Assembly: GCA_963662945.1 (NCBI GenBank)
Contig: OY759974.1
Span: forward strand, 288,001 to 352,000
Length of the DNA: 64,000 bases
DNA from: Arcobacteraceae bacterium
GTDB lineage: Bacteria > Campylobacterota > Campylobacteria > Campylobacterales > Arcobacteraceae
Direction of reading: 5' to 3'
Shown: positions 1 to 19,536 of the stretch, in pieces
Layout of the letters: every line of letters starts with the position of its first letter
How positions within the stretch are numbered: position 1 is the first letter of the stretch
Translations under genes and position numbers: made by a program
Notes under the pieces: model-generated
The model's input: only the letters and a program-made list of their open reading frames with translations
Told to the model about the DNA's origin: nothing
Databases searched by the model: none

Positions 1-186
1 TGATACAAATAAGTTTTCAAGATTTTTCATTTGATCATAATCACCTGAAAAAACAAAAGATCTATCTTTTCTAAATTTCCAATCATTATGATCTTCATAA
101 ATTGTTTGATATAAATTTGTTGTTAGTCCAATTTTAAATGATGAACTATCACTTTTTATTAATACATATACAAATGTGTTTTTCAT
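1..186 (-). CDS. GIY-YIG/T5orf172-like nuclease, N-terminal part (runs off the left edge)
   Basis: My translation: MKNTFVYVLIKSDSSSFKIGLTTNLYQTIYEDH...; matches the VYvl...fKIGxTxNL pattern. AAGGA RBS upstream. Not in the ORF track. Confidence 0.6.
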   Translation of the reverse strand, partial: MKNTFVYVLIKSDSSSFKIGLTTNLYQTIYEDHNDWKFRKDRSFVFSGDYDQMKNLENLFVS

Positions 187-223
187 ATTTTTTCCTTTTA
201 GGAATTAGATGTAAGAAATAATC

Positions 224-2122
224 TTACAATCCTAATTCATCTAATTTTGATTTTGGCTGCTCAACTGGTGGAATTTTATTTGAAGTTTTTTCTTCAATTT
301 TTTCTTGTTGATCATTATTTTGTTCAACAACTTGTCCACCACCATTTGAAGTTGGTTTTGTATCTTCAGATTTTTTATTTTGATTTTTAATTAGATTTGA
401 AATATCTAAATCATTTCTTGGAATAAATCCTTTTGCAATTTGAGGATAATTATCTTCATCAGTAAATTTCTTTTCAATTAAAGCCCAATCATAAGAACCA
501 TTTAGATAATAATATGTATTCTTTTTTAATTGTCCTAATTCAGAAGGTAGAATTGCTTTTTCAACTTTTTCACTTGTTGTATAACTTGATCCTTCTCTTG
601 ATGCTTGATTTTCTGCACCTGTTGAAGTTGTCATTGAAGTTGATTGAACTTTTCCATCACCAATGATGTTTGCACAAAATTCTCTTGTATCAGGATCACC
701 CAATTTAAAAATCAATTTACTTGAACAAGAACCTACAATTGCAAGTGCTAATTCTTTTCCATATATACTTGTCATTTTTCCAAAATCTTGAATACCTAAC
801 CAAAATGCACCACCTAAACTTCTTGCTAAAAGAACACCTTGAATAATTGAAGGAATCTTTTTTAACATTCCTAATTCATCTAAAATAAAATAAACTCTTC
901 TTGTATCACTATCTGAAAAAGATAATAATGTTTTAATTATTGAATCAACAAATACTGCAATTCTTGTTGAGTTTAATTCATCATTCTTAACATCATTTAC
1001 TAAGAAGATTGTTGAGTGTCCATCTTCACATTGTAACCATTCTTCTAAATCTAATTCTTCCCCATCATTAGAATCAGGTAATGATGTAAAGAACCCAACT
1101 TTTGATCTAAAATTACTCATAAAGATACCTGCTTGACTTTCAGAAGATGTTAAATGTCCATAAGCAATTTCTGCCCCTTGAACACCTTCAAGTTTATTAG
1201 CAAGTTGAGATGGACTTAATTTGATAAGTTGTTTAACTACTATATTTGTTTTCTTATCATTTACAATACAATATATTAAAATACCTTTTAATATATCCCT
1301 TGCTGTATCAGTCCATATTGTATCTTTTTCATCAGGGTTTCTTGTAATAATTGATGCAATCATTGAATCAATATCATCAATTAATTTGATCATAGAAAAT
1401 ATATTAAAATTCAAACTTCTTGAATCTGAAAAGTTAAATATATAATCTGTTTCAGGATTATAAAATCTTTCAATCCAATCAAATTTTACTGTGTGAACTA
1501 AATATCTTCCATAAGATCTTTTTTTTCTTAATTCTCTATAAAATTGATTAAGTGCAACTGTTTTTCCTGAACCTGCTGATCCAAATAATATTGCATGAGA
1601 AGTTTCAGTTTCCTGATCAACTTTAATATTATTTGTAATAGTAACACCTTCAATTTTATCTTTCTTTTGAAGTTCTTCAAGTTGTTTTTCTGTTAGAGTT
1701 TTTGATCCTTTAAGATGTTGATCTTCTAAAACTTTATTTGCAAATTTATTAGCAATTATTTTTTTAAGATAAATTGTTGTTGCAAATATTACAAAAAACA
1801 ATGAAAGAAATATTGTTAAAAGAAGATCAATATTATCCATAATTTTTGGTAAGAAATGTTCATATGCTCCTCTTGTTGAAACTAATTCACCTCTTAACAT
1901 CATATTATCTTGAAATGTAAATGTTGATTTTAAAACTGCTTCAAAATATAAAAGATTGATCTTCTCTGTTGGAAAAAAAGCACCAACAATATATAAAACT
2001 AATATTGCTCCAACTATTCCTGCAATTGCAGGATATAGTAAATGTTTTTGCCCTCTTGATATTGAATTATCAACAACATCAAATTGAGCAACTGTACTAA
2101 ATTTTTTTTGATTTTTTATCAT
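224..2122 (-). CDS. Type IV coupling protein (TrwB/TraD family)
   Basis: Two N-terminal TM segments, Walker A GSAGSGKT, Walker B FILDELG, ARSLGGAFWLGIQD and typical C-terminal PSELGQL motif. Confidence 0.9.
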   Translation of the reverse strand: MIKNQKKFSTVAQFDVVDNSISRGQKHLLYPAIAGIVGAILVLYIVGAFFPTEKINLLYFEAVLKSTFTFQDNMMLRGELVSTRGAYEHFLPKIMDNIDLLLTIFLSLFFVIFATTIYLKKIIANKFANKVLEDQHLKGSKTLTEKQLEELQKKDKIEGVTITNNIKVDQETETSHAILFGSAGSGKTVALNQFYRELRKKRSYGRYLVHTVKFDWIERFYNPETDYIFNFSDSRSLNFNIFSMIKLIDDIDSMIASIITRNPDEKDTIWTDTARDILKGILIYCIVNDKKTNIVVKQLIKLSPSQLANKLEGVQGAEIAYGHLTSSESQAGIFMSNFRSKVGFFTSLPDSNDGEELDLEEWLQCEDGHSTIFLVNDVKNDELNSTRIAVFVDSIIKTLLSFSDSDTRRVYFILDELGMLKKIPSIIQGVLLARSLGGAFWLGIQDFGKMTSIYGKELALAIVGSCSSKLIFKLGDPDTREFCANIIGDGKVQSTSMTTSTGAENQASREGSSYTTSEKVEKAILPSELGQLKKNTYYYLNGSYDWALIEKKFTDEDNYPQIAKGFIPRNDLDISNLIKNQNKKSEDTKPTSNGGGQVVEQNNDQQEKIEEKTSNKIPPVEQPKSKLDELGL

Positions 2123-2133
2123 AATTTTTTCCT

Positions 2134-2667
2134 TTAAAATCTGTAAGTTTCAACAATACCTTCTAATAAATCTTCAAATGGTAATGTGTGTTTCTCTGAA
2201 GAATTTGTTATTGGTAATTTTGCTACTGATATTTCATTTTGATTGATGTTTGTTATTGCAAGTAAATTGTTTTTAGCTGTAATAATTACATCACCTTTTT
2301 TATAAGAAGAAACATTTTGTTTTTCTTGATCTGTTAATTTTAATTCATACATTTTTTGAAATAAAAAAACTTCTGCATCATTTAATCTTTTAGTATCAAG
2401 ACTATTTATTAAATTTCTCATTGATGTTTCAAAAATATCTCCCATAGTATTTTTAATATCATTTATAGATTTTTTATTTTCATAACTTAACTTTTGAATT
2501 TCCTGTTCAAAATTAATATTGCTTGTATTTTGATTGTTATTTGGATTTAAGATTTGATTTTTAATCAAATGTTTCTTATCAATACCTGTTTCTTTTTCTA
2601 TCTGATCAAATAGATCTGCTTCTTCTATTGATAATCTGATTGATACTACTTTTGTATTAGCACTCAT
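2134..2667 (-). CDS. Ribbon-helix-helix relaxosome accessory protein (TrwA-like position)
   Basis: N-terminal VVSIRLSIEEADLFDQIEKETG resembles an RHH domain. Lies between the oriT-like region and the T4CP. Confidence 0.55.
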   Translation of the reverse strand: MSANTKVVSIRLSIEEADLFDQIEKETGIDKKHLIKNQILNPNNNQNTSNINFEQEIQKLSYENKKSINDIKNTMGDIFETSMRNLINSLDTKRLNDAEVFLFQKMYELKLTDQEKQNVSSYKKGDVIITAKNNLLAITNINQNEISVAKLPITNSSEKHTLPFEDLLEGIVETYRF

Positions 2668-2769
2668 AATAATTTTTTCCTTTAAAATTTAATTTGTTGA
2701 AATAATTCAACTTACTTTGTTATATGAAAAATTAAAATTATTTTTACTTTTTGTGTTTTTTAATAAAAT

Positions 2770-3115
2770 TTTGTTGTAAACATTGATTTAATCCACAAAT
2801 AGGAAGCTAATAAGGGGTAAAAAAGTGAAATGTTTACACTTTTATAGTGTAAACACTAAAATCATCAAATATAGGAATTATGGGGTTTTTAGAGAATTTT
2901 GATAATCATCAAAATATAGCTAATTATTAGGAATTAGTGGCTTTACTTGTGTAAACAAGGTACAAACCCCCTGTTGGGAGTCTTGTACCTTCTCTAAATT
3001 AGAAAATCATTTATGATTTTCAGCATCTTGAAAAGATGCCATATATTCTCAAAATGAGAATGACAAACTCTCAACATATTCTCAAAATAAGAATGTTTAA
3101 CCTATCTAATTCCTA
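2770..3115. other. Putative origin of transfer (oriT) region
   Basis: Non-coding, with tandem inverted repeats: TGTTTACACT/AGTGTAAACA 2831-2855, AAGGTACAA/TTGTACCTT 2957-2991, GAAAATCAT/ATGATTTTC 3002-3021, GCATCTT/AAGATGC 3023-3039, ATTCTCA/TGAGAAT 3045-3061. Repeated TGTAAACA and TAGGAATTA. Confidence 0.6.
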
Positions 3116-3524
3116 TAAAACAAATAAAAAAAAGATTTATAAATCTGATTAAAACTTTTTTATTACAAAATATATTCATTGAAAGTGTTTTAAAATTTAA
3201 TCATAAGAGAGACAAGCCAATAGTGAAAAACTTTTTAAAAAAAACTTTTGAATAATTGGAAATATTTTATTATTAAACTCAATACTTTCAATTAATATCA
3301 TTTTCATAATATATTTGAAATTCAAATATGTAATATTTAGAATGAATATAGTTTTGGTTAGTTTAAATAGTTGATTAGTTTGTTTGAATAAGGGGTTCAT
3401 CCCCTGAAAAGAAACCTTTTGGTTCTGATCAAAAAAGATTTTGAAAAGATAAGAAAATTTCTAAAAGAAATTTAATTAGCTTTGGTTTGTAGCTATGCTT
3501 TATCTAATTATTATTTTATCTTTT

Positions 3525-4235
3525 CTAAATTTGCATCATTGCTTTGAATGTATTATTTGATATTTGTGAATATTTATTTTCAGCATTATCACTTTTTAAA
3601 TATGATAAAAATTTATCAAGTGGTATTGTTGTTAATTTATTTGAATTTTTACTTTTCAAATGAACTTGAATAATATTTTTACTTTCAGTAATTATAAATA
3701 ATGGAATATCTGTAGGTTTAGTTTTTACTATTTTTCTTAATGAATATTTTGTTGTTTTCTTTAATCCATAAATAAAACTAACTGGTTTCACTTGAATACC
3801 AATTTTTATATCTCCATCAATTAAAAAATCTATACCTTTTTGACAATCTTCATCAGGATTTGAATGTGATATTGTATATCCTGTTGGTAAATGAAAATTT
3901 AATTCATCAAATACTTTCTGTTCTCTTTTAATCCCTATGAATGATTTGTTAATGAATGTTTCTGTTACATATTCTTTTAATGTGTTGTAATTGATACTCT
4001 TTTCAAATTGTTGCCATTTATTTGTTCTTTCTTCAATAAATGATGATAAGTCTTTTTTGATTTTTTTCATTAAATATTTATTATAAAACTCAATAAATAT
4101 TTCTTTTGTAATTTGATTTAGATTATATTCTTTTAATATTTCTTGAGCAACTTCCATTACATAAAATCCACAATCTATTGGTGAATTGATTTTATATTTG
4201 TTAAATGATTGGTTTATTTGATATGAACTTGTCAT
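3525..4235 (-). CDS. MjaI-family-like PD-(D/E)xK restriction endonuclease
   Basis: KSFIGIKRE...DEDCQKGIDFLI...IGIQVKP resembles the MjaI family core motifs. Confidence 0.65.
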   Translation of the reverse strand: MTSSYQINQSFNKYKINSPIDCGFYVMEVAQEILKEYNLNQITKEIFIEFYNKYLMKKIKKDLSSFIEERTNKWQQFEKSINYNTLKEYVTETFINKSFIGIKREQKVFDELNFHLPTGYTISHSNPDEDCQKGIDFLIDGDIKIGIQVKPVSFIYGLKKTTKYSLRKIVKTKPTDIPLFIITESKNIIQVHLKSKNSNKLTTIPLDKFLSYLKSDNAENKYSQISNNTFKAMMQI

Positions 4236-4342
4236 AATCTTGTTTCCTTGTGTTTTAAAATTTGTTATACACTGTTATAAGACAAACTTTTCAGAAAAAA
4301 TATTTTTAATACTTTTTATTAAATGATTTTGATTAGGAAAAA

Positions 4343-4377
4343 TTAGGCATAAAAAAACCTCTCAAAAGAGAGGTTAT
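4343..4377 (-). terminator. Intrinsic terminator
   Basis: AACCTCTC-aaaa-GAGAGGTT hairpin with a U-tract on the minus strand, just after the stop at 4381. Confidence 0.8.
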
Positions 4378-4380
4378 GAA

Positions 4381-4797
4381 TTAACAAAAATATTTATTAT
4401 AGATTAGATGAATTAAAATATTTTTTATATTTTCATCAATATGATTAGATAGATCAATATCTTCATTGAAAAAAGATTCAAGAGTTTCTAAAAGAAGTTC
4501 TCTTTCTTCTTGATCATTTGTAAGATCACCAAGTAATGTTTCAATATTAAATTGTATATTGAATGAAAAATGTTTACCTATTACTGTAATAGAATCATCT
4601 TGTTGAATAAAACTTGCTCTATCATAATCTTCAATGATAGTATTAATTAAATGATCAAATGTTAATCCATCTTCATTTACATTAATTAGTTCTTCATAAG
4701 TTAATCCTGTATTTATTAGATCAATTAATTGTTCTTTAGAAAAACCAATACCAATTAAAAAACTGAATTGTTCTTTTGTTAAAATATTATTCTTCAA
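4381..4797 (-). CDS. Small acidic hypothetical protein
   Basis: ORF track starts at 4839; a TTG at 4797 has an AAGGA RBS and is the better start. About 26 D/E versus 8 K/R by hand count. Confidence 0.7.
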   Translation of the reverse strand: MKNNILTKEQFSFLIGIGFSKEQLIDLINTGLTYEELINVNEDGLTFDHLINTIIEDYDRASFIQQDDSITVIGKHFSFNIQFNIETLLGDLTNDQEERELLLETLESFFNEDIDLSNHIDENIKNILIHLIYNKYFC

Positions 4798-4943
4798 TTT
4801 TTTTATCCTTTTATTTGATTTGATCAAATTAATGACCATTATTGGTTATAGGTAGGTAAATACTAAAAAAAGAAGAATAAAAAAATCCCCACTTAATTAA
4901 AAGTGAGGATAACTTGTTATTTGTTTTATCAAAATGCTATATT

Positions 4944-5102
4944 CTAATCTATCAAATCATAGAGATCATATTTATTTAATAATATGAATTGATCTTCACC
5001 ACTTTCTAAATTCTCTAATGCAAAATTTCTTAAAATTGGATCATTTACATTAAATACTAATTTTGTTAATTCCCATATTTCTTTTTCTAAATTTTCTTTC
5101 AT
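4944..5102 (-). CDS. 52-aa acidic hypothetical protein
   Basis: My translation: MKENLEKEIWELTKLVFNVNDPILRNFALENLESGEDQFILLNKYDLYDLID. Has the AAGGAAACAAAATT leader shared with its neighbours and a hairpin downstream near 4885-4910. Confidence 0.6.
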   Translation of the reverse strand: MKENLEKEIWELTKLVFNVNDPILRNFALENLESGEDQFILLNKYDLYDLID

Positions 5103-5169
5103 AATTTTGTTTCCTTTAAATTTAATTTGATCATTTGATCTACAATGTTATATAAATAAATATTTATAA

Positions 5170-5529
5170 TTATGCAACTTCTAATTCTAATTCATCAATT
5201 AGATTATCTAATGTAGTTGGTGCATATTTAATTTGATCCATTGGATGAATTTCAAGTTGAACATTTTGTTTTTCTTTCATTCTTTTTTCTTCAATTAAAT
5301 CCATTTCTGCAATTAATGCTTCTTCTAATGAATTGAAACCCCAAAACTCAAATGTATATTCAGGTGATCCAAAACTTCTTCCATAACCTGCTAATTTGAT
5401 ATATGTTGCTTCTTTTGATCCTTCAATAATTTTATATAAAATTGAAATATTTTCTTTAATTAATTGATTGTTAGTTGCTAAAACTATTCTGTCTTGTGAA
5501 TTTGTAAATGTGTTTATTTTTGTTTTCAT
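5170..5529 (-). CDS. Hypothetical protein
   Basis: 119-aa ORF; 5' leader identical to that of 3525-4235. Confidence 0.7.
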   Translation of the reverse strand: MKTKINTFTNSQDRIVLATNNQLIKENISILYKIIEGSKEATYIKLAGYGRSFGSPEYTFEFWGFNSLEEALIAEMDLIEEKRMKEKQNVQLEIHPMDQIKYAPTTLDNLIDELELEVA

Positions 5530-5684
5530 AATCTTGTTTCCTTGTGTTTTTAAAATTTTTAATATTGAGTTAATCCTTATTAACTTCTTACTTATAATAT
5601 ATAATTTTTTATATTATTTTTCAAGTATTTAATAGAAAATATTAAAGAATTTTGAAATTTCTTTTAGGGAAAAAATATGAGTGA

Positions 5685-7406
5685 TTAGAAGTTAGTTTGA
5701 GTGAAATATTTTTGATCAGGAATAAAAGGGATTATATCATTTTCATTAAATTGATAATCTAAATCAAATATGTTTAAATCTTTTTTGAGTTTAAACTTTG
5801 GATATATATTATTTTCATATCTATAAACATTAAATAGTTCAACACCATTTTTTGATCTTGTAATAATTCTTCTTGGGGTTGATGTATCAATATCAATATC
5901 TTGTAAATGATAATAGAAAAATTCTATCTGATCAAGTTTTAATAATTTCTTTTCTAATATAGTATCATCATTATAATACTCTTGAAATAATTTATCTTCT
6001 AAATATTTCATAAATACTTCTATATCTTGTTCTTTTGATTTCATATATTCATATGATGCTTCTTTATCCATATTAAAAATTGATAATAAGATATATTTGT
6101 TATTGATTATATATTTATCTAAATATTTAATCTCTAAAACTTTTTCACTTCTTTTATGAGGATTATCAACATATTCATCATATTTACTTCTATTTTTTTT
6201 ATTATCAATTTTATTTTTATAAAAATGTTTAATTGCTATTGACATACTTTTATAATTATGATGTTTTTTAAATTTGATAATTTCAAAATAATTAGTAAAA
6301 ATATCTATAAGAGGAAAAAGAAAAAACATACTTCTTTCTAATTTTGTAGTAATAACTTTTAATTGATGATATGTTGATAATTTATCAGCAATATTTGTAA
6401 GAGCATCTTTTAATTCTTCAATTGTTTCTTTTGAATGATATGTTTGAAGTAAATATTCAGGATCATTCATTTTTTCTTGATATTCAGATTTCTCTTTTAA
6501 TTTTATATTTTGTTCTTCTAATGAAAGTGGATTACCAAAATCATCAAGGAAATAATATTCAGGTGATTTTTTTTCTGAATCAAAATGATAATATTTATTA
6601 CCATTATCACTTTCAATATAATCTGTTTCATAATCAATTGAATAAAGATTTTCTAAATTAGTATAAAGTTGTCTATATGGAGCATAATATTTTCTTTGCC
6701 ATTTTTTTAAATGATCATTAGTAAAAATATTTATTTCTTTAATATCTGAAATAATCATATCAAGTTCATTTGATGCAATACTAATATTTTTAATATGTTG
6801 ATTGTTAATTTTAGTTCTTTGAAAATTTGAAGTAAATTCTTTATATTTTTCAATTCTATTTTCTATAATATTTAATTTATTGAGAATCATTGTATATATT
6901 TTTTTTGCATTAAACTCACTATTAATTATATTTGTTATTTCATTAATACAATAAGTTTTAGAATTTGAAAAAAAAGTATTATGATTTTCTTTATCATATT
7001 TTTTAATTAATTCTTTTAGTAGTGGAATATATGATGCTTTGATATTTGATAAGGTATTTATTTGATCACATATAAATTGTGTATTTTTTTTATTTTTAAA
7101 AGCAATAGAACTAATATATAGAATAATACTATTATTTGAAATTACATAATTATTATATTTATCTTCAATATTTTCTTTCATTTCAATACAATGATTTCCA
7201 TTATCTTTATTCAAATATAGAATTATATATTCAAATGTTTTATTTCTATAAAGGATATATTTTTGATCAGATTTAGAAACTTCTTTAAGGTTTTTGATCT
7301 CTTGTATTTTCTCAATATGATTTATCATTGTATTTATTACATCTGAAAAGTTTTTCAATGATGTTAATTCTTGTTTTGTCTTAATATAAGGTGTTCTTTT
7401 AGCCAT
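5685..7406 (-). CDS. Hypothetical protein (K/N/I/Y-rich)
   Basis: 573-aa open frame in very AT-rich DNA; no motif recognised. Confidence 0.65.
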   Translation of the reverse strand: MAKRTPYIKTKQELTSLKNFSDVINTMINHIEKIQEIKNLKEVSKSDQKYILYRNKTFEYIILYLNKDNGNHCIEMKENIEDKYNNYVISNNSIILYISSIAFKNKKNTQFICDQINTLSNIKASYIPLLKELIKKYDKENHNTFFSNSKTYCINEITNIINSEFNAKKIYTMILNKLNIIENRIEKYKEFTSNFQRTKINNQHIKNISIASNELDMIISDIKEINIFTNDHLKKWQRKYYAPYRQLYTNLENLYSIDYETDYIESDNGNKYYHFDSEKKSPEYYFLDDFGNPLSLEEQNIKLKEKSEYQEKMNDPEYLLQTYHSKETIEELKDALTNIADKLSTYHQLKVITTKLERSMFFLFPLIDIFTNYFEIIKFKKHHNYKSMSIAIKHFYKNKIDNKKNRSKYDEYVDNPHKRSEKVLEIKYLDKYIINNKYILLSIFNMDKEASYEYMKSKEQDIEVFMKYLEDKLFQEYYNDDTILEKKLLKLDQIEFFYYHLQDIDIDTSTPRRIITRSKNGVELFNVYRYENNIYPKFKLKKDLNIFDLDYQFNENDIIPFIPDQKYFTQTNF

Positions 7407-7559
7407 AAAGATATTTTCTCATAATTTACATAATAGCACCCTGACATATAGAATTTAATTAAATTAGTATCAGTAATAACTGTTAAAGTTGTATATGAAA
7501 AAAAAGTTTATAACTTTATTTTTTTGTTATTTAAAAACTTATTGTTAATAAGTTAAAGG

Positions 7560-7577
7560 TGAGTAAATATTTACTCA
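7560..7577. promoter_or_regulatory. Perfect 18-bp palindrome, possible operator in a divergent intergenic region
   Basis: TGAGTAAAT/ATTTACTCA, flanked by two shorter inverted repeats. Confidence 0.4.
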
Positions 7578-7618
7578 ACAAATATATGCACATTATTATG
7601 TGATAAAAGGAAAAAATT

Positions 7619-10545: not shown

Positions 10546-10638
10546 AATTAGGGTTACTGATTTATAACTACTGAACTACATAGATTTATTTTAATTTAGA
10601 TAGAATAGTAACTATTTATAAAAATAGGTATTATTAAA

Positions 10639-13335
10639 ATGAGTGAAGCAAAGACAAGAGCAGATTTAATTGATGTTGAATTAAATAAATGTGGTTGGAA
10701 TGTCAATGATAATTTAAAAGTAATTCAAGAATATGAGATTGAATTAGATGATACTCTACCATCATTTTTTGATAGAACTAAAAGATATGTAGATTATGCA
10801 CTTTTAAACAAAACAGGACAAATTATTGCTATTGTTGAAGCTAAAAGAGAGAGTAAGTCTGTAAGTAGTGCAAAAACACAAGCAGAATACTATGCAAGAA
10901 GAATTAAAAACTATCAAGGTTTTGCTCCATTTATCTATATAACAAATGGATTAGAAATAGAATTTTGGGATAGTGAAAATTATCCTATTAGAAAAGTTCT
11001 ATCTTACCACTCATTAGAAGATTTAGAAACTTATAGAAAAAGAAATGATAATAATATAATTTTATCTCCTGAACTTTTAAACAAAGATATTGCAGGTAGA
11101 GCTTATCAAATTGAAGCTATCACAAGAACAACAGAAAATCTAAATGAAAAAAATAGAGAAATCTTGTGGGTTATGGCAACAGGAACTGGGAAAACAAGGA
11201 CTATCATATCTCTTGTAGATATTCTTTTAAAAACAGGATTTGTAAAAAGAGTTTTATTTTTAGCAGATAGAAGAGAATTAGCAAGACAAGCTATGGATAA
11301 CTTCAAAGAACACCTACCAAACCAATCAAGACAAAGAATAGAAACAGAAACTTTTGAAAAAGACAAAAGATTATATGTATCTACTTATCAAACTATGATG
11401 TCATTACTTAAAAAAGTTGATATAAGTCAGGGGTTTTTTGATCTAATAATTGCAGATGAAAGTCATAGAAGTATTTATAACTATTATGGACAATTATTTT
11501 TAAAATTTGATAGTTTAAAAATAGGTTTAACTGCTACTCCTGTTGATTTTATTGATAGAGATACTTTTAAATTCTTTGGAACTGATAAAGGTAATCCAAC
11601 TTTTGCATATACTTATGAACAAGCTATAAAAGATAAATACCTTTGCCCTTATGAGGTTATGAATATTCAAACAAAGTTCCAAGAAAAAGGTATTAAATTT
11701 GATTTATTATCAAAAGAGGAACAAGAAAAACTAAAAAATAGTGGTTATGTTGAAGATGATATAGACTTTGAGGGAAGTAGTATAGAAAAAATGGTTATCA
11801 ATGATGATACAAATAGAAAAATACTTACTACTTTTATGGAAAATTGTTATAGACACCCTATTTCAAATCTTCCTGCTAAAACTATACTTTTTGCTGTTAG
11901 TAAAAAACATGCTTACAGATTAGAACAACTTTTTAATGAATTATATCCACAATATCACTCAAAAGTAGCAAAAGTAATAGTATCAGAGTTAAATAATACA
12001 GAGGAACTGATAAAAGAGTTTAGAGATGTTGATAGTGGTTTTAATATAGCTATTTCTGTTGATATGTTAGATACAGGTATAGATGTTCCAAGTATTATGA
12101 ATCTTGTATTTGCTAAACCTGTATTTAGTAGGGCTAAATTTTGGCAAATGATAGGAAGAGGTACAAGACTATACAATGAAGTATTTAATAAAGAAAAGTT
12201 TGTAATCTTTGATTTTTGGGGTAATTTTCAATACTTCAATGAAACCCCTGAGGGATTTGAACCAAAAGAACAAATATCTTTAAATAGAAAAATATTTAAT
12301 GAAAATATTCAACTGCTTAAAAGTTTAAAGGATGAAGAGTTTGAATATGTCAAAGAAGAGATAAAATCACAAATTGAAGCACTACCAAAAGATGATTATT
12401 TTATCAAATCAAAGGCTACCCTACTTTCAAATATCAATGAAGATTTTTACAATAATATAAAATCAAATATTCTATCACTTGGAAATATATCTGAATTAGT
12501 TGATAGAATTGAAGTCAAAGAACCACAAGAACTTCAATTTAGAGTTAAAGTTAAAAAACTTCAAAATGTAAAAATAAAAAAAGATACTAAACTTATTGAA
12601 AAGTATATCAATAGTATTTTGATAGATATTGAAAAAGTTAGAGTAAATAAAACCCTATCAATAGTAAAAAAACATATAGAACTACTTAATAAGTGTTCAG
12701 ATGGAAAATATTGGGCTAATATTGATTTTAATACTACAAATGAAATAACAGATATTTTAGCACCACTTATGAAATACAAATCAAAAAATGATATTCAAGT
12801 AGCTCATTTTGATTTAGAAGATAGTATATCTTCTATTACAGATATTGAGATAAACCACCCATCTGTAAATATACAAGAGTATGAAGATAATATTTTAAAA
12901 ACTCTTCAATCTATTATAAATCAATCTCAAACTTTGCAAAAATTGTTTATAGGTGCTCCACTAAATGATGAAGATATAGAAAGTTTAAAAAATGATTTAT
13001 TAGAGCAAGGATTAGATAGTGAAAAACTATGTAAAATCTTTGATTGTAAATCAAATGATATGATTGAGATACTTTCAAACATAATTAATAAAAAAGAGTA
13101 TAAACTACCATTCTTACTTGATAAGTTTATAGAAACACATACACTAAACTCAAATCAAATAGAATTTATCAAAGCAATCAAACATTATGTTTTAGAGAAA
13201 AAAGATATTGAAAGAAAAGATTTAATGGAAAATCCATTTACCAAGTTTCATAAAATGGGAATAATGGGTATGTTTAAAGGTAGTCAAATGAATGAGTTAG
13301 TTGAGATAATAGATAATAAGGATGTAGCTGTATGA
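10639..13335 (+). CDS. hsdR: Type I restriction enzyme R subunit
   Basis: DY...VEAK nuclease motif, MATGTGKT, DESHR, QMIGRGTR. Confidence 0.95.
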   Translation: MSEAKTRADLIDVELNKCGWNVNDNLKVIQEYEIELDDTLPSFFDRTKRYVDYALLNKTGQIIAIVEAKRESKSVSSAKTQAEYYARRIKNYQGFAPFIYITNGLEIEFWDSENYPIRKVLSYHSLEDLETYRKRNDNNIILSPELLNKDIAGRAYQIEAITRTTENLNEKNREILWVMATGTGKTRTIISLVDILLKTGFVKRVLFLADRRELARQAMDNFKEHLPNQSRQRIETETFEKDKRLYVSTYQTMMSLLKKVDISQGFFDLIIADESHRSIYNYYGQLFLKFDSLKIGLTATPVDFIDRDTFKFFGTDKGNPTFAYTYEQAIKDKYLCPYEVMNIQTKFQEKGIKFDLLSKEEQEKLKNSGYVEDDIDFEGSSIEKMVINDDTNRKILTTFMENCYRHPISNLPAKTILFAVSKKHAYRLEQLFNELYPQYHSKVAKVIVSELNNTEELIKEFRDVDSGFNIAISVDMLDTGIDVPSIMNLVFAKPVFSRAKFWQMIGRGTRLYNEVFNKEKFVIFDFWGNFQYFNETPEGFEPKEQISLNRKIFNENIQLLKSLKDEEFEYVKEEIKSQIEALPKDDYFIKSKATLLSNINEDFYNNIKSNILSLGNISELVDRIEVKEPQELQFRVKVKKLQNVKIKKDTKLIEKYINSILIDIEKVRVNKTLSIVKKHIELLNKCSDGKYWANIDFNTTNEITDILAPLMKYKSKNDIQVAHFDLEDSISSITDIEINHPSVNIQEYEDNILKTLQSIINQSQTLQKLFIGAPLNDEDIESLKNDLLEQGLDSEKLCKIFDCKSNDMIEILSNIINKKEYKLPFLLDKFIETHTLNSNQIEFIKAIKHYVLEKKDIERKDLMENPFTKFHKMGIMGMFKGSQMNELVEIIDNKDVAV

Positions 13336-14504
13336 TAAATAATCTTCCAAGTGGTTGGAAAGAAGAAAAAATTGGTAATATAATAAATTTAACAATTGGT
13401 AAAACTCCATCAAGAAAAAAGACTGAATATTTCACTGGTGATAATTTATGGGTATCAATTGCAGATATAAAATCAATCAATTTAACTGATACAAAAGAAA
13501 AAATTACAGAACAAGCAATCAAAGAAAGTAATATCAAAAAAGTTAAAGCAGGAACTCTTATTATGAGTTATAAATTATCAATTGGTAAAATGGCTTTTGC
13601 TTCACAAGATTTATACACAAATGAAGCAATAGCAGCTTTAAATATTGAAATTGAAGATTTAGATAAAAAGTTTTTATACTACTACTTATTAAATGCAGAT
13701 TTAGAAAAGACAACAGATAGAGCAGTAAAAGGTAAAACATTAAATAAAGCAAAAATTGAACAAATTCCTATTCAATTTCCACCACTTCAACAACAAGAAA
13801 AAATAGTAAAAGTTCTTGATACTACTTCAAATCTAATAGAAAAACAAAAAGAGCTTTTGAAAAATTATGATTTATTTTTAAAATCAAAGTTTATAGAGAT
13901 GTTTGGAGATCCAATTAAGAATCCTATGGGGTGGAAAACTAATCAAATAAAAAATGGTGTAAAGAAAGTTAAAAATGACAACCCATTAAAACAACCACAA
14001 AAAACATATATTTACATTGATATAGGTTCTTTAAATAATAAATATATTGAAAATTATAATTATATTTTAGGAGAAGATGCACCAAGTAGAGCAAAACAAA
14101 TAACATTTTTTAATGATATACTTGTATCTACTGTAAGACCAAACCTAAATAATGTGGCAATGGTAAAATCTACATATGAAACTATTTTATCTTCCACAGG
14201 TTTTTGTATTTTAAGAACAAATGAACAAATATTTAATCCATATTATTTATTTGAAGTAGTAAAACATCAAGGTTTTATACAAAGCTTGATAAATGTAGCA
14301 AAAGGTGCTTCATACCCTGCTGTAAGTAATAATGATATATTAGATTTAAAAATAACAGTTCCTCCAATAGAACTTCAAAATAAATTTGCTTCAATAGTTG
14401 AAAAAATAGAAACTATAAAAGAAAAAGAAAATCAAAAACTAAAACAGCTTGAAGATTTACATAATAGTTCAATGCAAAGAGCTTTTAAAGGGGAAATTGA
14501 ATAA
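13332..14504 (+). CDS. hsdS: Type I R-M specificity subunit
   Basis: Two TRDs with conserved PPLQQQEKIV and PPIELQNKF helices, and MFGDP. Confidence 0.95.
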   Translation: MINNLPSGWKEEKIGNIINLTIGKTPSRKKTEYFTGDNLWVSIADIKSINLTDTKEKITEQAIKESNIKKVKAGTLIMSYKLSIGKMAFASQDLYTNEAIAALNIEIEDLDKKFLYYYLLNADLEKTTDRAVKGKTLNKAKIEQIPIQFPPLQQQEKIVKVLDTTSNLIEKQKELLKNYDLFLKSKFIEMFGDPIKNPMGWKTNQIKNGVKKVKNDNPLKQPQKTYIYIDIGSLNNKYIENYNYILGEDAPSRAKQITFFNDILVSTVRPNLNNVAMVKSTYETILSSTGFCILRTNEQIFNPYYLFEVVKHQGFIQSLINVAKGASYPAVSNNDILDLKITVPPIELQNKFASIVEKIETIKEKENQKLKQLEDLHNSSMQRAFKGEIE

Positions 14505-15514
14505 TGGCTATTTTTAGATTTAAAAATGATAATTTTGACAAAATAGAACAAACAAAGTTTTCAACAGAGGGAATACTTGAAACAAAAAATATTCAAAAAG
14601 CTTTAAAGAAACAGATAGATATTATATCCTCAAATCTTTTAGTTATATCAGAAGAGTTTTCAGAATGGGATGATAGTAATAGAAGAATAGATTTACTTGC
14701 TATTGATAAAGAAGCAAATATTGTAGTTATAGAACTAAAAAGAACTGAAACAGGTGATCATATGGAACTACAAGCATTAAGATATGCTTCAATGGTTTCA
14801 ACATTGACATTGAAAAGAGCAGTTGAAATATTTGAAAAGTATTTAAAGTCAATTGATAGTGATTTAAACCCACAAGAAGAGATTTTATCATTTTTGGGTT
14901 GGAGTGAAGAAGAGAGTAAAGATGAGTTTGCTAATGATGTAAAAATTATACTTGTTTCAAGTAATTTCTCAAAAGAACTTACAACTTCTGTAATGTGGTT
15001 AAATGAAAGAAAAATAGATATCAAATGTTTTAGACTTATACCATACAAAATGGATAATGAAGTTTTAATTGATGTTCAACAAATAATCCCTTTACCTGAA
15101 GCAGAAAGTTATCAAATAAAAATAAGAGAACAAAAAGAAGAAAAAAGAGAAGCAAGAACTGGAATAAGAGATTATTCAAGATACTCTTTTAATGGTGAAA
15201 ATGGATTATCAAAAAGAGGTATTGTTTTAACTATTTGGAAACAATATTTAAAAGATAACCAAAATTTAACTATCTCTAAACTTCAAAATGATTTTCCAAG
15301 AGATATAAAAGGTAATTTATTTGTTTTAAAACAACAAGCATTAGAACAACAAGAAAGAGATAGTAATAATCTAACAAGATACTTCCTTGAAAATGAAGCA
15401 GTTGCAATTATTAATAACAGTGAATATGTAATCTCTAATCAATGGGGAAAAGGTAATATAGAAAAGTTTGTTAGTTATGCAAAAAAATTAGGTTATGAAA
15501 TAAATGAGGAATAA
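14504..15514 (+). CDS. NucS/EndoMS-like PD-(D/E)xK nuclease domain protein
   Basis: RIDLLAIDKEANIVVIELKR and QALRY motifs, plus an extra C-terminal domain (SNQWG). Confidence 0.7.
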   Translation: MAIFRFKNDNFDKIEQTKFSTEGILETKNIQKALKKQIDIISSNLLVISEEFSEWDDSNRRIDLLAIDKEANIVVIELKRTETGDHMELQALRYASMVSTLTLKRAVEIFEKYLKSIDSDLNPQEEILSFLGWSEEESKDEFANDVKIILVSSNFSKELTTSVMWLNERKIDIKCFRLIPYKMDNEVLIDVQQIIPLPEAESYQIKIREQKEEKREARTGIRDYSRYSFNGENGLSKRGIVLTIWKQYLKDNQNLTISKLQNDFPRDIKGNLFVLKQQALEQQERDSNNLTRYFLENEAVAIINNSEYVISNQWGKGNIEKFVSYAKKLGYEINEE

Positions 15515-15517
15515 TAA

Positions 15518-16990
15518 ATGTTTGTAAGAAGTGAAGTAAAAAGTAAAATAGATAGTATTTGGAATAAATTTTGGAGTGGTGGGATTGCTAATCCACTTGA
15601 TGCTATACAGCAAATAACAGCTTTAATATTTTTGAAGCTTTTAAATGAAAATGATAATAAAAGTATTCTTCAATCTTCATTTACAGGTGAAGAATATAAT
15701 TCTATTTTTGAAAATGATAAAATGGCTAAATGGGATAACTTTAAAGAGCTTGATAGTGTTAGTATGCTTGAAACTATAAGAGATATTGGATTTCCTTTTA
15801 TCAAAAAATACAATGAGGGAAGTGAGTTTAATAAATCATTAAAAGATATGGCTTTTATTATCACTAAACCATCTTTATTAAGTGAAACTGTTGAGGGTAT
15901 TGATCAGATATTTAATATCCTTGAAGAAGATGAAGAGGGATTTATGGATAGTCTTGGGGATATGTATGAATATCTTTTAAGTGAAATTAGTTCCAGTGGT
16001 AAAAATGGACAATTTAGAACACCAAGACATATTATTCAAATGATGACTGAACTAACAAATCCACAAATTGGAGAAAAAGTTTTTGATCCATCTTGTGGTA
16101 CAGCAGGATTTTTAGTAAGTGCTTATACTCATATGTTAAAGCCATATACTGATAAAGATGGAAAATTAGGGGCAAATCTAACAGATCAAAAACTATGGAA
16201 TAAACTATCAAATGAAACTTTCTATGGAAATGATAGTGATATAAGTATGATCAGAATATCTATGATGAATATGATGTTACATGATATAAGTAATCCACAT
16301 ATAAAACAAACAGATACACTTTCAAAAGGTTATAATGAAAAAGATATGTATCAAGTGGTTTTAGCCAATCCACCATTTAAAGGAAGTATTGATAAAGAAG
16401 ACCAAAATGAGAACTTCTCTATCACTTCAACAAAAACAGAACTTTTATTTTTAGACTTGATTGAAAGAGTATTAGATATTGGTGGTAGATGTGCAGTTAT
16501 TATCCCTGATGGTGTTTTATTTGGTAGTTCAAATGCTCATAAAACACTTAGAAAGAATCTATTAGAGAAGAATGAATTAAAAGCTGTTATATCTATGCCA
16601 AGTGGGGTATTTAAGCCTTATGCAGGGGTTTCTACTGCTGTTTTAGTTTTTGTAAAAGGTGGAACTACTGATAAAGTATGGTTCTATGATATGGAAGCTG
16701 ATGGATATAGCTTAGATGATAAAAGAAATAAAATTGAAAAAAATGATATACCTGAAATCATAGAGCAATATAATAAAAAAGATAGTGATAGTTATAAAGA
16801 AACTAAAAAACACTTCTTCATAGATATAAAAGATATAAAAGAAAATGATTATGATTTATCAATAAATAGATATAAAAATATTGAATATGAAGAGATTGAA
16901 TATCTGCCTACAAATGAAATTTTGGGGGAGATTGAAAATCTATCTAATGCTATAAATGATGATTTAAGTGAATTAAAAAATCTCTTATAG
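15518..16990 (+). CDS. hsdM: Type I R-M methyltransferase subunit
   Basis: GQFRTPRHI, DPSCGTAGFL, ANPPF. Confidence 0.95.
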   Translation: MFVRSEVKSKIDSIWNKFWSGGIANPLDAIQQITALIFLKLLNENDNKSILQSSFTGEEYNSIFENDKMAKWDNFKELDSVSMLETIRDIGFPFIKKYNEGSEFNKSLKDMAFIITKPSLLSETVEGIDQIFNILEEDEEGFMDSLGDMYEYLLSEISSSGKNGQFRTPRHIIQMMTELTNPQIGEKVFDPSCGTAGFLVSAYTHMLKPYTDKDGKLGANLTDQKLWNKLSNETFYGNDSDISMIRISMMNMMLHDISNPHIKQTDTLSKGYNEKDMYQVVLANPPFKGSIDKEDQNENFSITSTKTELLFLDLIERVLDIGGRCAVIIPDGVLFGSSNAHKTLRKNLLEKNELKAVISMPSGVFKPYAGVSTAVLVFVKGGTTDKVWFYDMEADGYSLDDKRNKIEKNDIPEIIEQYNKKDSDSYKETKKHFFIDIKDIKENDYDLSINRYKNIEYEEIEYLPTNEILGEIENLSNAINDDLSELKNLL

Positions 16991-17022
16991 AATCTATAAC
17001 CTTTTTATAGAATGGAAATAAA

Positions 17023-18294
17023 TTGAATAAAACCAGAGAACAATTATTAACTAAATTATATAGTATTTACATATTCATTATAAAAAAATTATCAAATGAT
17101 ATTATAAATACAATAGTGAGCTGTAATACATTAATTTACAATAAAATATATATTAGAGTATTTGAAATTTACAAAGATAATACTATTGAACAAAACAAAA
17201 AATTTACCAAGTATTTATATGAGTGTGTTTTGGGATTGAATCCATTGATTGATGAAGAGGATAAGGGAGAATTAGATTTATTAATAAAAGAAATAATATC
17301 AAGTGAATCAAAACTAATAGCTAAACATTATATATTAAGGGCATATTTTGATTATTATATATCTACTAATAGTGTTTTTAAAATAATAAGCAAAAAAAAT
17401 ATCAAAACTAATTTTAAAAAAGCTAAAAAATATGATTTAGATATAAAACTTTTAAGGAATAAAGATTACAAAGCTTTCAAAAAAGATATAAAATCAGAAT
17501 TGAAAGATATATCAAATAAGATAAAAATTATAAATAAAGAAAAAATAAAACTTGAAAAAGAAAAGACAATTAATCCTATTGAAATTAAAATATCAAATAT
17601 AATTGCTTTAATTTCAATTTTTTCTGCATTATCCCTAATTGGAGGCATAATTTATAATCAATTACTTTTTTACTTTTTAGGATTAAATGCAACAAACTTT
17701 TTTAATATATCAGATTATATCTCTTCAAGTGTTGATGTTCTATTTATTGTATTTATTTCTATGGCTATAGCAATACCTTTTTATTTTTTGAAAACTATTC
17801 ACCTTTTAGATGAACAAATCTTAGATGATCAACTTGGAACAAATATTCAAATTGAAAATAACAAAAAAGAATCAATTATTAAATGGTTTATGTATATTTT
17901 ATTAATTTTGGTAAATATTGCATTGTATATTAAAGATAAAGAGATTAATTTTGATTTTTTACTTGTCCTTATATATACTTCTATAATCTTTTCTTTACCA
18001 AAATTAGGTTTTATGAAGTATATTAAAAATTCATATCATTTTGCCTTGTCTATATTAATAATACTTAACTTTTTATTTCTAATAATTTCAAAAGCACATA
18101 ATGAAAAAGAAAATATTAAAACTGATAATTACAATAATAAATATAAAATTGTTTTAAAAGAAAAAAATAATAACAAATACTCATTTATTCAATCTAATTC
18201 AAACTATACTTTCTTATTTAATAAAAATGAAAATAAAGTTATAATCATACACAATAATGAGATTGAAAGAATAGAAGTCTTACTTAATGAATAA
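17023..18294 (+). CDS. Hypothetical multi-pass membrane protein (start uncertain)
   Basis: Soluble N-terminus, then about 5-6 hydrophobic segments. Confidence 0.65.
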   Translation: MNKTREQLLTKLYSIYIFIIKKLSNDIINTIVSCNTLIYNKIYIRVFEIYKDNTIEQNKKFTKYLYECVLGLNPLIDEEDKGELDLLIKEIISSESKLIAKHYILRAYFDYYISTNSVFKIISKKNIKTNFKKAKKYDLDIKLLRNKDYKAFKKDIKSELKDISNKIKIINKEKIKLEKEKTINPIEIKISNIIALISIFSALSLIGGIIYNQLLFYFLGLNATNFFNISDYISSSVDVLFIVFISMAIAIPFYFLKTIHLLDEQILDDQLGTNIQIENNKKESIIKWFMYILLILVNIALYIKDKEINFDFLLVLIYTSIIFSLPKLGFMKYIKNSYHFALSILIILNFLFLIISKAHNEKENIKTDNYNNKYKIVLKEKNNNKYSFIQSNSNYTFLFNKNENKVIIIHNNEIERIEVLLNE

Positions 18295-18359
18295 GAAAGT
18301 ATAGTTTAGATTTTAATACACTACAGATATTAAAAATAGGGTTAATTAGTGTCTATTAG

Positions 18360-18378
18360 GTACATAAAATAGTACATA
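18360..18378. repeat. GTACATA direct repeat, candidate integrase arm-type site near attR
   Basis: GTACATA-aaata-GTACATA, about 65 bp before the junction. Confidence 0.4.
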
Positions 18379-18442
18379 GTAGAGTTTATAAAATCACTAT
18401 AAACCCCTTAAATAATAGGCTTATAGCTATAAGTGGAACATA

Positions 18443-18541
18443 GTAATATCTTTTGCACCCCTACTTTTAGGGATGCCTATAGCTTGGTATTCACACCTTA
18501 TAGGTTTTGCTCTTGGGTGGGTTATGGGATACATTCTTTAA
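18443..18541 (+). pseudogene. Orphan 3' end of a rhomboid-family intramembrane protease gene (probable attR)
   Basis: Frame reads VISFAPLLLGMPIAWYSHLIGFALGWVMGYIL*, with a rhomboid-like (A/S)HLxG helix. In-frame stop upstream at 18416; its stop overlaps the convergent gene's stop. Confidence 0.7.
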
Positions 18542-19536
18542 GATAATTTTTCAAAAATCTTTTTAGCTTGAATAATTGCTCCCTCTATATAACCACCTTG
18601 TTCAAAAGAAAATTCTGTAGAACTAAATAATACTTTGTCCCCATATTTACTTGTATCGATCCCATAGTTTGGATGAGCTGTCATATTATTAAAATCTTCT
18701 TTTGTAGAAGTATATTTTTCTCTCTTCCAATCAACAAGATGTATAGCTAAAATTTCACTTTCCTCTATATCAAAAACTCTTTGTAATTGTTCTATTAACT
18801 CTTTTTTATAATTATCAGTATCCACTTTAATTCTTACAAATCCAAACAATGCATTTTTGGTACGAGTAGTAGCATCATGTATCTCAGCCAACGGTCCAAT
18901 ATTTGAGAAAACAAATCCACTCAAACCTTTCTCTCTCCAAAATGAAGTTTTAAATTCAATGACACACTTTGCACTATTTCCCATCCAAGTTTGAGTATTT
19001 TTCATTTTCTCTTTTAATTGTATTGGCAGTGGTGGGATAAAATTTAAATTTTGGGCAATTCTTGGAGGAAGTGTGGAGATAGCATAGTTGCTTGTATACT
19101 CTTTAGTCTTTGTTTTTATTGTTATATTTTCTTGCTTTACTATGGATACAACTTCACTATTTAAAACTATATTGACATTTTGTAATTGATTGTGTAATTT
19201 ATCTATAAGCTTTGTAAGTGTCCCATCCATTCTTGCTGATGGGATATTTTGTTGTGGCATAAATTTTTCAACACTATTTTGTGTATCATACAAAGCATAG
19301 CCATTTTCATATTGTAAAAAGAGTTGTAAATCAAATTTTTCAATAAGTTCTAAAATATTTTTGTGATGTTGCCATACCCAAGATGGTCCCATATCATGAC
19401 CATCTATACTATATATTCTTCCACCTATTCTATCTCTAGCTTCTAAAATAGTTATATCATATTTTTTTTGGAGTAAATAAGCTAAATATAACCCACTAAC
19501 TCCAGCACCGATAATAACTATTTTTTCTTTTTTCAA
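18538..19536 (-). CDS. Flavin monoamine oxidase family FAD oxidoreductase
   Basis: IIGAGVSG, EARDRIGGR, DMGPSW, GYIEGA. Confidence 0.85.
   Translation of the reverse strand: MKKEKIVIIGAGVSGLYLAYLLQKKYDITILEARDRIGGRIYSIDGHDMGPSWVWQHHKNILELIEKFDLQLFLQYENGYALYDTQNSVEKFMPQQNIPSARMDGTLTKLIDKLHNQLQNVNIVLNSEVVSIVKQENITIKTKTKEYTSNYAISTLPPRIAQNLNFIPPLPIQLKEKMKNTQTWMGNSAKCVIEFKTSFWREKGLSGFVFSNIGPLAEIHDATTRTKNALFGFVRIKVDTDNYKKELIEQLQRVFDIEESEILAIHLVDWKREKYTSTKEDFNNMTAHPNYGIDTSKYGDKVLFSSTEFSFEQGGYIEGAIIQAKKIFEKLS

Follow-up and report, generated by a model that had tools for sequence, protein, structure and literature searches.

The stretch of DNA analysed here (hereafter the window) comprises 64,000 nt of a single-contig Arcobacteraceae genome of 2,497,315 bp (GenBank assembly GCA_963662945.1, contig OY759974.1; designated G000, with the window at G000:C1:288001-352000). 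Its first part, window positions 1–18459, belongs to an integrative mobilizable element (IME) in which neither the dinucleotide CG nor the tetranucleotide CTAG occurs. A direct count over the whole genome found no CG between genome positions 261,901 and 306,657, a run of 44,756 bp of which the window holds just the final 18.6 kb. The element itself measures 44.5 kb (genome 261,949 to 306,459) and starts 26,052 bases before the window. An earlier note, made from the window sequence alone, had described an 18 kb mobile element that lacked both words and carried restriction-modification (R-M) genes. It was right as to the nature of the element, which has an integrase, a relaxase, att repeats, a type I R-M system and empty sites in related genomes, and wrong as to the size, which is 2.4 times larger, the element being cut by the window edge.

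Structure and insertion site of the element

The right attachment-site core (attR), a 16 bp sequence on the plus strand at window positions 18444–18459 (genome 306,444–306,459), is identical to the left core (attL) at genome 261,949–261,964. Directly after the right core lies a diverged copy of the final 82 nt of the rhomboid gene of the host (window 18460–18541, plus strand), paralogous to genome 261,965–262,046. The core and the duplicated rhomboid 3′ end show that the element inserted in the 3′ end of the rhomboid gene and therefore supplies a replacement for the end that it displaced. In all five of the complete same-genus genomes the site is empty, with the 5′ part of the rhomboid gene and the displaced original 3′ end contiguous and overlapping at the core. 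The element is flanked on the left by genes for the Lon and rhomboid proteases and on the right by genes for an amine oxidase and an aldo-keto reductase; a search for tRNA genes found none. The sources named for the protein cluster of this Lon protease agree with a host in the Arcobacteraceae.

A 47 bp imperfect direct repeat, made up of an 18 bp exact core plus flanking matches, occurs near each end (right copy at window 18334–18380, plus strand; left copy at genome 262,085–262,131), and these repeats are probably arm-type sites of the integrase. The integrase probably also binds, as arm-type sites, the GTAC-containing repeats (ATGTACYT-like) that cluster at both ends of the element (on the left at L001:10085-10260): of the 31 GTAC sites, six fall in a 135 bp stretch at the left end and two in the right 47 bp repeat.

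The first CG beyond the element, at window positions 18657–18658, falls within the amine-oxidase gene, and the first CTAG is at 19436; direct counting thus bore out the positions given for both in the earlier note, which had also offered the loss of CG as a sharp boundary marker. The edge is sharp but inexact: the left att core lies 48 bp inside the last CG, and on the right the distance to the first CG is 213 bp from the start of the core and 198 bp from its end. Next to attR, the amine-oxidase gene (window 18538–19536) is normal in CG and lacks a counterpart at this position in all five same-genus genomes; in four of those the aldo-keto reductase gene lies at most about 2 kb after the rhomboid gene, directly adjoining it in one. 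This gene may be an older second insertion at the same hotspot.

Gene content

The integrase (422 aa) scored 25 bits against the Phage_integrase profile, just under the 27.1 cut-off, and has a SAM-like N domain; homologues with 33–51% identity are present in 14 other genomes of the family. The relaxase is a MobF/TrwC relaxase-helicase of 1,349 aa (TrwC relaxase profile, E 1.4e-47), and a TrwB/TraD-like type IV coupling protein of 632 aa is encoded at window positions 224–2122 on the minus strand (PF10412, E 8.6e-68). VirB4 (PF03135) was not found anywhere in G000, in a search that did not extend to TraU and other VirB4 families such as AAA_10, and none of the open reading frames (ORFs) of the element is of VirB4 size. 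Because no VirB4 was found, we classify the element as an IME and not as an integrative and conjugative element: a 44.5 kb tract with an integrase, att repeats, a relaxase and a coupling protein, in which no mating-pore genes were found.

The leading region contains the anti-restriction genes ardA and an ardC-like gene (ArdC-N). Directly upstream of each lies a copy of a non-coding module some 500 bp long, the two copies being 92–95% identical (L002:13560-14084 and L002:16032-16545; genome 283,560–284,084 and 286,032–286,545). The 299 nt core of the module folds as a long imperfect hairpin (−43 and −40 kcal/mol, z −5.5 and −6.4), and about 214 bp of the module is kept at 72–73% in the G099 and G179 islands described below. 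Judging by this resemblance, the hairpin modules may be akin to the leading-region single-stranded DNA promoters (Frpo-like) or ssi elements of plasmids. Further genes that lie before the window encode a pentapeptide-repeat protein, a Rep3-type initiator and an HD-domain protein. Four of the 11 CATG sites of the element lie within 170 bp of the HD-domain gene (L002:1676-2305), which is CG-free; this gene may be a later acquisition in which the purging of CATG is unfinished. At L002:9266-9561, eight copies of a repeat with a 21 nt period lie inside a minus-strand ORF of 267 aa, which encodes a repetitive protein.

The window opens in the 5′ part of a gene for a 194 aa T5orf172-domain protein (window 1–186, minus strand, the rest lying before the window; PF10544, a weak match at E 8.6e-4). 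Beyond the coupling protein gene, the minus strand carries genes for a 236 aa protein resembling MjaI-family restriction endonucleases (3525–4235; PF09568, E 2.5e-10, 40.9 bits against a cut-off of 22.7) and for a 573 aa protein with no match in Pfam, NCBIfam or PADLOC (5685–7406). The genes that follow are on the plus strand. They begin with a DUF285 repeat protein of 222 aa (7619–8287; PF03382, E 8.5e-51) and a solitary N6-adenine methyltransferase-like protein of 336 aa with an NPPF motif (8663–9673; PF02384, E 2.8e-11, with matches to the mad2 and type I methyltransferase models). The latter is 31% identical to a 404 aa methyltransferase of the G179 island, and a structure search with it gave no PDB match. 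A 196 aa protein (9955–10545) recurs at the right end of the G099 island with 49% identity over 88 aa.

The type I R-M system is encoded in a single operon. HsdR (10639–13335), with ResIII, EcoEI_R_C and HSDR_N domains, has 83–85% nucleotide identity to its counterparts in three other islands; the specificity subunit HsdS (13332–14504; PF01420) is only 35–39% identical among the islands, so that the specificities differ; and the methyltransferase HsdM (15518–16990; PF02384, E 1.1e-66) shares 90–91% amino acid identity with those of G099, G137 and G179. Inside the operon, at 14504–15514, lies the PDC-S11 defence candidate, which has a NucS/Cas4-like nuclease fold (PDLC04909, E 2e-119). The last gene of the element (17023–18294) encodes a 423 aa protein with only a faint TauE match.

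Absence of CG and CTAG

The absence of CG is real and far beyond chance. Over the whole tract, 617 CGs are expected from base composition and 212 at the host's observed/expected ratio (o/e) of 0.34; none was observed (probability of zero, ~1e-92). CTAG is likewise absent, against 66–67 expected under a Markov model and 90 from composition, and CATG is depleted eightfold (11 observed, about 89–90 expected). No depletion was seen for GATC, AGCT or TGCA. The GC content of the tract is 23.5%, against 28.9% in the host. CG occurs 17,769 times and CTAG 4,316 times in the chromosome, and once the element is set aside every 10 kb window of the genome has a CG o/e of at least 0.19. No CG-free tract of similar length exists elsewhere in the genome, the runner-up among gaps between CGs being 1,744 bp. 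The gap ranked third, of 1,546 bp, also lies in the window (41489–43035), in ordinary chromosome.

For window positions 1–18656, composition predicts 258 CGs, in line with the few hundred estimated in the earlier note, while the host o/e predicts 88 and the density of the rest of the window 121; for CTAG the predictions are 38 from composition and 33 from the density of the rest of the window. Neither word occurs there, and the remaining 45 kb of the window contains 295 CGs and 81 CTAGs. GGCC and CCWGG, which had also been reported missing, are indeed absent from this part (the first copies are at 20160 and 26882), but with only 1.6–3.6 and 2.7–4.1 copies expected their absence is within chance and, at such low counts, uninformative alone. 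The CG count in the adjacent chromosome, put earlier at about 13 in 19.5–20.6 kb, is 15 between positions 19,500 and 20,600.

The coding analysis covered 33 genes of the element, 31.8 kb in all, taken from a crude set of ORFs. Within codons, the CGN codons for arginine and all NCG codons are unused, giving no CG where 115 would be expected under host codon usage. At codon junctions, none is formed against 101.5 expected from the element's own frequencies of C at third and G at first positions; in the host, the o/e for these junctions is 0.45. Outside these ORFs, a further 12.6 kb of DNA also lacks CG, against 154 expected. As had been proposed from the window alone, the avoidance therefore acts on DNA and is no codon bias; nor is it a property of the proteins. 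The proteins pay nothing, because each CG can be removed synonymously, by the use of AGA for arginine and the avoidance of NCG codons and of C–G junctions. CG is missing in all 16 flanking contexts over the 44.5 kb, and further words that are classical restriction targets are avoided as well: GATATC (1 observed, 18 expected), GAATTC (1 and 14), ATGCAT (0 and 8.6) and CTCAG (2 and 21). TG and CA have o/e values of 1.31 and 1.13 in the element, against 1.16 each in the host, an excess that is also expected from synonymous replacement under selection.

Relatives of the element

For the relaxase, 60 related genomes yielded just two distant matches (28–30% identity); nothing in PLSDB exceeded 30% identity; and an alignment scan of species-representative genomes found nothing above 36%, with 19 loci at or below that value, five of which (L060-L063, L077) have CG o/e values of 0.5–0.88. 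A single-protein pattern scan of the species genomes gave no match. The DNA of window positions 1–18656 matched no plasmid, the Rep protein has no relative in PLSDB, an Aliarcobacter MobF query against PLSDB returned nothing at E 1e-80, and viral contigs yielded nothing.

A protein search did find relaxase relatives with 56–60% identity in metagenomes. CG was counted for one of these, L008, with P0002, P0003 and P0005 left out. L008, the closest relative, is a 9,179 bp contig that is syntenic with the element over five genes, and its relaxase has 60% amino acid identity; it contains 3 CGs against 150 expected (o/e 0.02), no CTAG and 3 CATGs. In the remaining 51 metagenome loci the CG o/e ranges from 0.30 to 1.23. 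As synonymous sites are saturated at 30–60% amino acid identity, the CG-free state must be old and maintained. Distant relatives in the relaxase lineage each lack another 4-mer while their CG levels are ordinary: GATC does not occur in L020, L022, L038, L040 and L062 (16–70 expected in four of them; no expectation was computed for L062), nor CTAG in L019 (46 expected) and L063.

CG-poor islands that share the type I R-M module

In three genomes of three other Arcobacteraceae genera there are modules with 83–89% nucleotide identity to that of the element; these are the three of 150 other genomes in which HsdM reaches the identity given above. In each, the module lies in an island that is nearly free of CG: 17.2 kb with 5 CGs in G099 (o/e 0.02), 11.4 kb with 7 in G137 (o/e 0.04) and 19.5 kb with 6 in G179 (o/e 0.02), whereas the flanks of these islands have o/e values of 0.20–0.24. 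Backbones were compared for G099 and G179, the G137 island being unannotated. The G099 island occupies the same rhomboid site and has an integrase that is 51% identical, with a different relaxase; the G179 island differs in its integrase and carries a CBASS pair, a different Rep3 and a relaxase of the MobA/VirD2 type. Given these differences in relaxase and integrase, the CG-poor trait spans different backbones. No link between integrase family and CG poverty was seen among ten integrase loci. The CBASS pair of the G179 island, a DncV-like cyclase with a Cap15 effector (G179:C1:1284310-1286261; L097:1310-3261), adjoins the shared type I R-M module.

Ongoing removal of new CGs

When the hsdR and hsdM sequences of the four islands were aligned (4.17 kb, 841 variable columns), each of the six CGs in the alignment proved to be a singleton. 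Where the neighbouring bases are conserved, third codon positions show a CG-creating transition (T to C if followed by G, or A to G if preceded by C) at 3 of 233 sites. In other contexts these transitions are seen at 95 of 672 sites, so that those leading to CG are 11-fold suppressed (Fisher p 5e-10). The control is an orthologous module in another family of the order, whose HsdM has 82% amino acid identity and whose gene contains 33 CGs in 1,473 bp (o/e 0.68), in surroundings with 8–30 CGs per kb. The proteins therefore do not need CG-free coding, and the removal of CG must be due to something peculiar to this pool of elements.

The MjaI-family gene and the loss of CTAG

The MjaI-family gene of the element is the only copy in G000, and the family (PF09568) occurs in four of 184 genomes of the Arcobacteraceae. 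Its specificity, which we take from the name of the Pfam family, is presumably CTAG. The element protein and its homologue in G096 have in common a conserved motif, ID(F/Y)L...GIQ(V/I)KP (D...Q-x-K). In G096 the nuclease gene overlaps a PF01555 methylase gene, forming a canonical pair; in G000 no methylase gene adjoins the MjaI-like gene and no PF01555 partner was found, the sole PF01555 locus of the genome being 855 kb away and matching the G096 methylase at E 1e-4. The solitary N6 methylase gene lies 4.4 kb from the MjaI-like gene. CTAG is absent from the element and from L008, and is merely less frequent than in the flanks in the three islands without an MjaI-family gene. The absence of CTAG is thus probably self-protection of the element from its own predicted MjaI-family nuclease, which has no adjacent methylase. 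The 4,316 chromosomal CTAGs may survive because the nuclease is inactive, has another specificity or is matched by the solitary N6 methylase.

C5 methylases and methyl-dependent nucleases

A profile search found no C5 methyltransferase (PF00145) in G000, G099, G137 or G179, and the methyltransferases encoded by the element are of the N6 type only. PF00145 is present in 88 of 151 genomes of the family, and by a rough reckoning that none of the four hosts of CG-poor DNA should have one has a chance of about 3%, a figure that is only a hint since related genomes are not independent. The commonest C5 methylase of the family aligns end to end with M.HhaI (E 8e-74), and nine of the ten C5-methylase loci returned belong to this one family, being 50–94% identical (seven of them 71–94%). 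The M.HhaI-like proteins (L099-L105, L107, L108) are about 325 aa long and occur in several Arcobacteraceae genera, with two outliers at 50–71%. An Mrr-type nuclease is present in G000; searches for the McrBC and SRA families found neither in this genome.

Discussion

We favour, with moderate confidence, the view that a guild of mobilizable, defence-carrying elements is under continuing selection to evade DNA-targeting defences by lacking CG and, in the present case, CTAG. Also in keeping with this view are the anti-restriction genes, the depletion of further restriction targets, the complete loss of other 4-mers in relatives of the relaxase lineage and, as family context, the C5 methylases found in 88 of 151 genomes but in none of the four with CG-poor islands, together with the Mrr-type nuclease of G000. 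The anatomy of the element, its insertion, the avoidance at the DNA level, the persistence of that avoidance over deep divergence and its ongoing maintenance are directly supported by the data presented above. The nature of the selective agent we infer, both that it would be a defence system and which one it might be.

Purifying selection on the nucleotide sequence would keep the element free of CG and CTAG and poor in CATG and several 6 bp palindromes, which would amount to restriction-site avoidance pushed down to the dinucleotide level. Each new CG would become a target for a DNA-directed defence met on transfer between strains. The target might be CG itself, through a factor that reads CG directly on incoming DNA. 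Alternatively, it might be CG-containing sites that are C5-methylated in the donor and cut by methyl-dependent nucleases in recipients without C5 methylation. Under the second option, strains of the family would either C5-methylate their DNA or not, some of the non-methylators would cut methylated DNA, and elements shuttling between both kinds of strain would fare best if they were never cytosine-methylated. This donor-methylation scheme is coherent but unproven, and may apply if there are methylases that cover all CG contexts. More tentatively, and with a good deal of doubt, we raise the possibility of an undescribed DNA-discrimination system in Arcobacteraceae or their mobile elements whose recognition unit is the bare CG. 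Such a system could take the form of a CG-directed nuclease acting on incoming DNA, or of CpG modification together with a modification-dependent nuclease, and the guild of mobilizable elements with defence cargo would have escaped it by losing all its CGs.

Several observations weigh against selection by a CG-directed defence. Among the 21 CGs left in the near-free islands, no preferred context was seen. The CG o/e is 0.63–0.82 at the MobF loci of G027 and G028, and ten loci with related integrases (32–50% identical, in nine genomes) are ordinary in CG density, their CG-free runs not exceeding 1.9 kb, although G082 is somewhat low at 0–3 CGs per kb. These ten come from 19 matched integrase loci, with G000 and G099 analysed separately and seven left out (the remaining loci of G003 and G012, and those of G024, G026 and G072). 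The pressure is therefore not general to the mobile elements of the family. An M.HhaI-like methylase, which would act on GCGC, would explain just one CG context, and across the family the presence of Mrr and that of C5 methylases are not mutually exclusive. Nor did the analysis turn up a nuclease or a methylase specific for the bare CG, and no nuclease of such specificity is known to us. Finally, the 17,769 apparently unprotected CGs of the chromosome indicate that CG by itself is not cut in the present host.

Four other explanations were weighed against selection. In the first, the element and the three islands are recent and independent arrivals, not yet ameliorated, from an unsampled lineage that is itself nearly free of CG throughout its genome. 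The uniqueness of the element within G000, the lack of close relatives in the 60 related genomes and the species representatives, the GC content below that of the host and the few singleton CGs in the sister islands, as expected after transfer, are all in keeping with such an import. Yet no sampled fragment of an Arcobacteraceae chromosome has an o/e below 0.14, and the shared module differs by 11–17% among the four genera, so that the reservoir would have to be a diverse clade missing from the 184 family genomes. L008, at 60% amino acid identity, is equally free of CG, which makes the state ancient in the lineage of the element, and an import would merely shift the puzzle to a whole genome. 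We consider this explanation unlikely.

It is also improbable that the element is protecting itself from nucleases of its own that cut DNA containing CG and CTAG, in the service of excluding competitors, abortive infection or addiction, so that a lack of sites avoids suicide. For CTAG the idea draws on the MjaI-family gene without an adjacent methylase, whereas G096 has the adjacent pair, and on the absence of CTAG from the element and L008 but not from the three islands that lack such a gene; with the family present in so few of the 184 genomes, avoidance of CTAG is unlikely to be driven by recipients. Several element proteins also have no assigned function. Against this, the host lives with the full complement of CGs and CTAGs in its chromosome, no candidate CG-specific nuclease was identified, and what the three islands have in common with the element is for the most part the type I R-M module, with differing HsdS subunits.

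Mutational decay, in which the cytosines of CG are methylated or deaminated in hosts or at a single-stranded stage of transfer and CG passes into TG or CA with no selection, was one of two causes put forward in the earlier note, there as long residence in CpG-methylating hosts. The family as a whole is depleted of CG (o/e 0.14–0.58 in about 25 sampled loci, and the genome-wide value in G000 given above), C5 methylases are common in it, and, compared with the host rate, the element has an excess of about 240 TG and CA dinucleotides, which roughly equals the number of missing CGs. TG also exceeds CA on the plus strand, the inferred transferred strand, in genes of both orientations (D = 0.147). 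But this asymmetry is just ~2.5 SD over a replichore baseline of ~0.04, is close to zero in the three other islands, and is exceeded by a host window that reaches 0.25; the strand-specific CG-to-TG signature was accordingly dropped as evidence. In G000 the TG-versus-CA asymmetry (log ratio of o/e) flips with the replichore, from about +0.04 between ~0.09 and 1.3 Mb to about −0.045 elsewhere, the outlying window of 0.25 being at 934 kb. Long residence in methylating hosts is not supported, as mutational equilibrium would not reach zero of several hundred sites: 0 of 617 would require CG to be destroyed several hundred times faster than it is created. The searches found no C5 methyltransferase in the four hosts or in the element, which speaks against decay of methylated cytosines in the present hosts, and decay leaves the loss of CTAG and CATG unexplained. 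Decay therefore appears quite unlikely. The other cause named in the note, selection to escape a defence, fits the better of the two, given the 11-fold suppression of CG-creating transitions and the CG-rich orthologue in another family.

An artefact of sequencing, assembly or masking can be dismissed with near certainty: the window contains no N, ORFs are unbroken throughout the element, contigs of four public runs (one study) hold 97–99% of the sampled words, and independent assemblies (three genomes and one metagenome contig) are likewise nearly free of CG. One run of another study yielded eight short identical contigs at a depth of 2–8.

Selection against CG would matter in several ways. 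Target avoidance is normally partial and concerns sites of 4–6 bp, whereas here a dinucleotide is wholly absent, and nearly so in several unrelated backbones. An absence that is total and maintained implies a selective agent that reads CG itself, which, if true, would be a new kind of barrier to horizontal transfer; apart from the orphan CpG methylases of Mollicutes, bacteria are not known to have such an agent. Should a system that recognizes the bare CG exist, these elements would be the first natural CpG-free replicons, and the system a bacterial counterpart of the CpG-based sensing of non-self in animals. The absence of CG also provides a compositional marker with which such elements can be spotted in genomes and metagenomes. 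Lastly, the element demonstrates that a full set of genes for conjugation, replication and defence can be encoded without CG, which is useful for the design of vectors for Campylobacterota that are hard to transform.

Comparison with known systems

In its genes, the element resembles MOBF-type IMEs and defence islands, with which it has in common an integrase, att repeats, a relaxase, a coupling protein, a Rep3 initiator and R-M or PDC cargo. It differs from MOBF-type IMEs in a relaxase that is at most 30% identical to that of any PLSDB plasmid, in a Rep protein without a PLSDB relative and in a composition that is unprecedented.

In its composition, the element is apparently an extreme and undescribed variant of restriction-site avoidance. 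Sharp in 1986 and Rocha in 2001 are said, by a paper that cites them, to have studied the avoidance of palindromes. The survey by Shaw et al. (2023; PMC10359461) treats the avoidance in phages and plasmids of R-M targets that are short palindromes, an effect that is stronger in mobile than in core genes; the targets are of 4–6 bp, depletion is partial, and 4 bp palindromes are not more avoided in plasmids than in core genes. As in the avoidance described there, short targets have been lost from the element by point mutation, alongside anti-restriction genes and solitary methylases. The survey deals with 4–6-mers and makes no mention of dinucleotides, whereas here a 2 bp word and a 4 bp word are both absent over 44.5 kb.

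The Mollicutes offer a second parallel. In PMC9465063, where Wojciechowski (2013) is cited, CpG under-representation in Mollicutes is tied to CpG-specific methyltransferases (M.SssI, M.MpeI), and prokaryotic CpG methylases are described as known only in this group. The two cases agree in that AT-rich prokaryotic DNA is depleted of CG, with CG itself the recognised unit. They differ in that the depletion in Mollicutes is genome-wide, moderate (o/e 0.46–0.5 in M. agalactiae) and linked to a C5 methylase (PMC9465063). In our case it is total and confined to a mobile element, in a host in which no C5 methylase was found.

A third parallel comes from outside the prokaryotes. ZAP is a CG-sensing host factor that reads the CG dinucleotide as non-self. 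The CG suppression of vertebrate RNA viruses is named together with ZAP in PMC11282364. The likeness lies in a parasite genome purged of a dinucleotide in a host that is itself poor in CG; the difference is that ZAP is eukaryotic and acts on RNA. Our search of the literature found no bacterial counterpart of ZAP, no CG-free prokaryotic element and no CG-directed bacterial defence.

A further parallel is man-made, in the CpG-free plasmids for gene therapy with which PMC7751972 and PMC5086335 are concerned. Such plasmids are reportedly small, engineered constructs, designed against TLR9 and silencing in vertebrates. The element arrived at the same recoding solution, the synonymous removal of CG from genes and backbone alike, but unlike those plasmids it is natural, has divergent natural relatives and occupies an att site that is empty in sister species.

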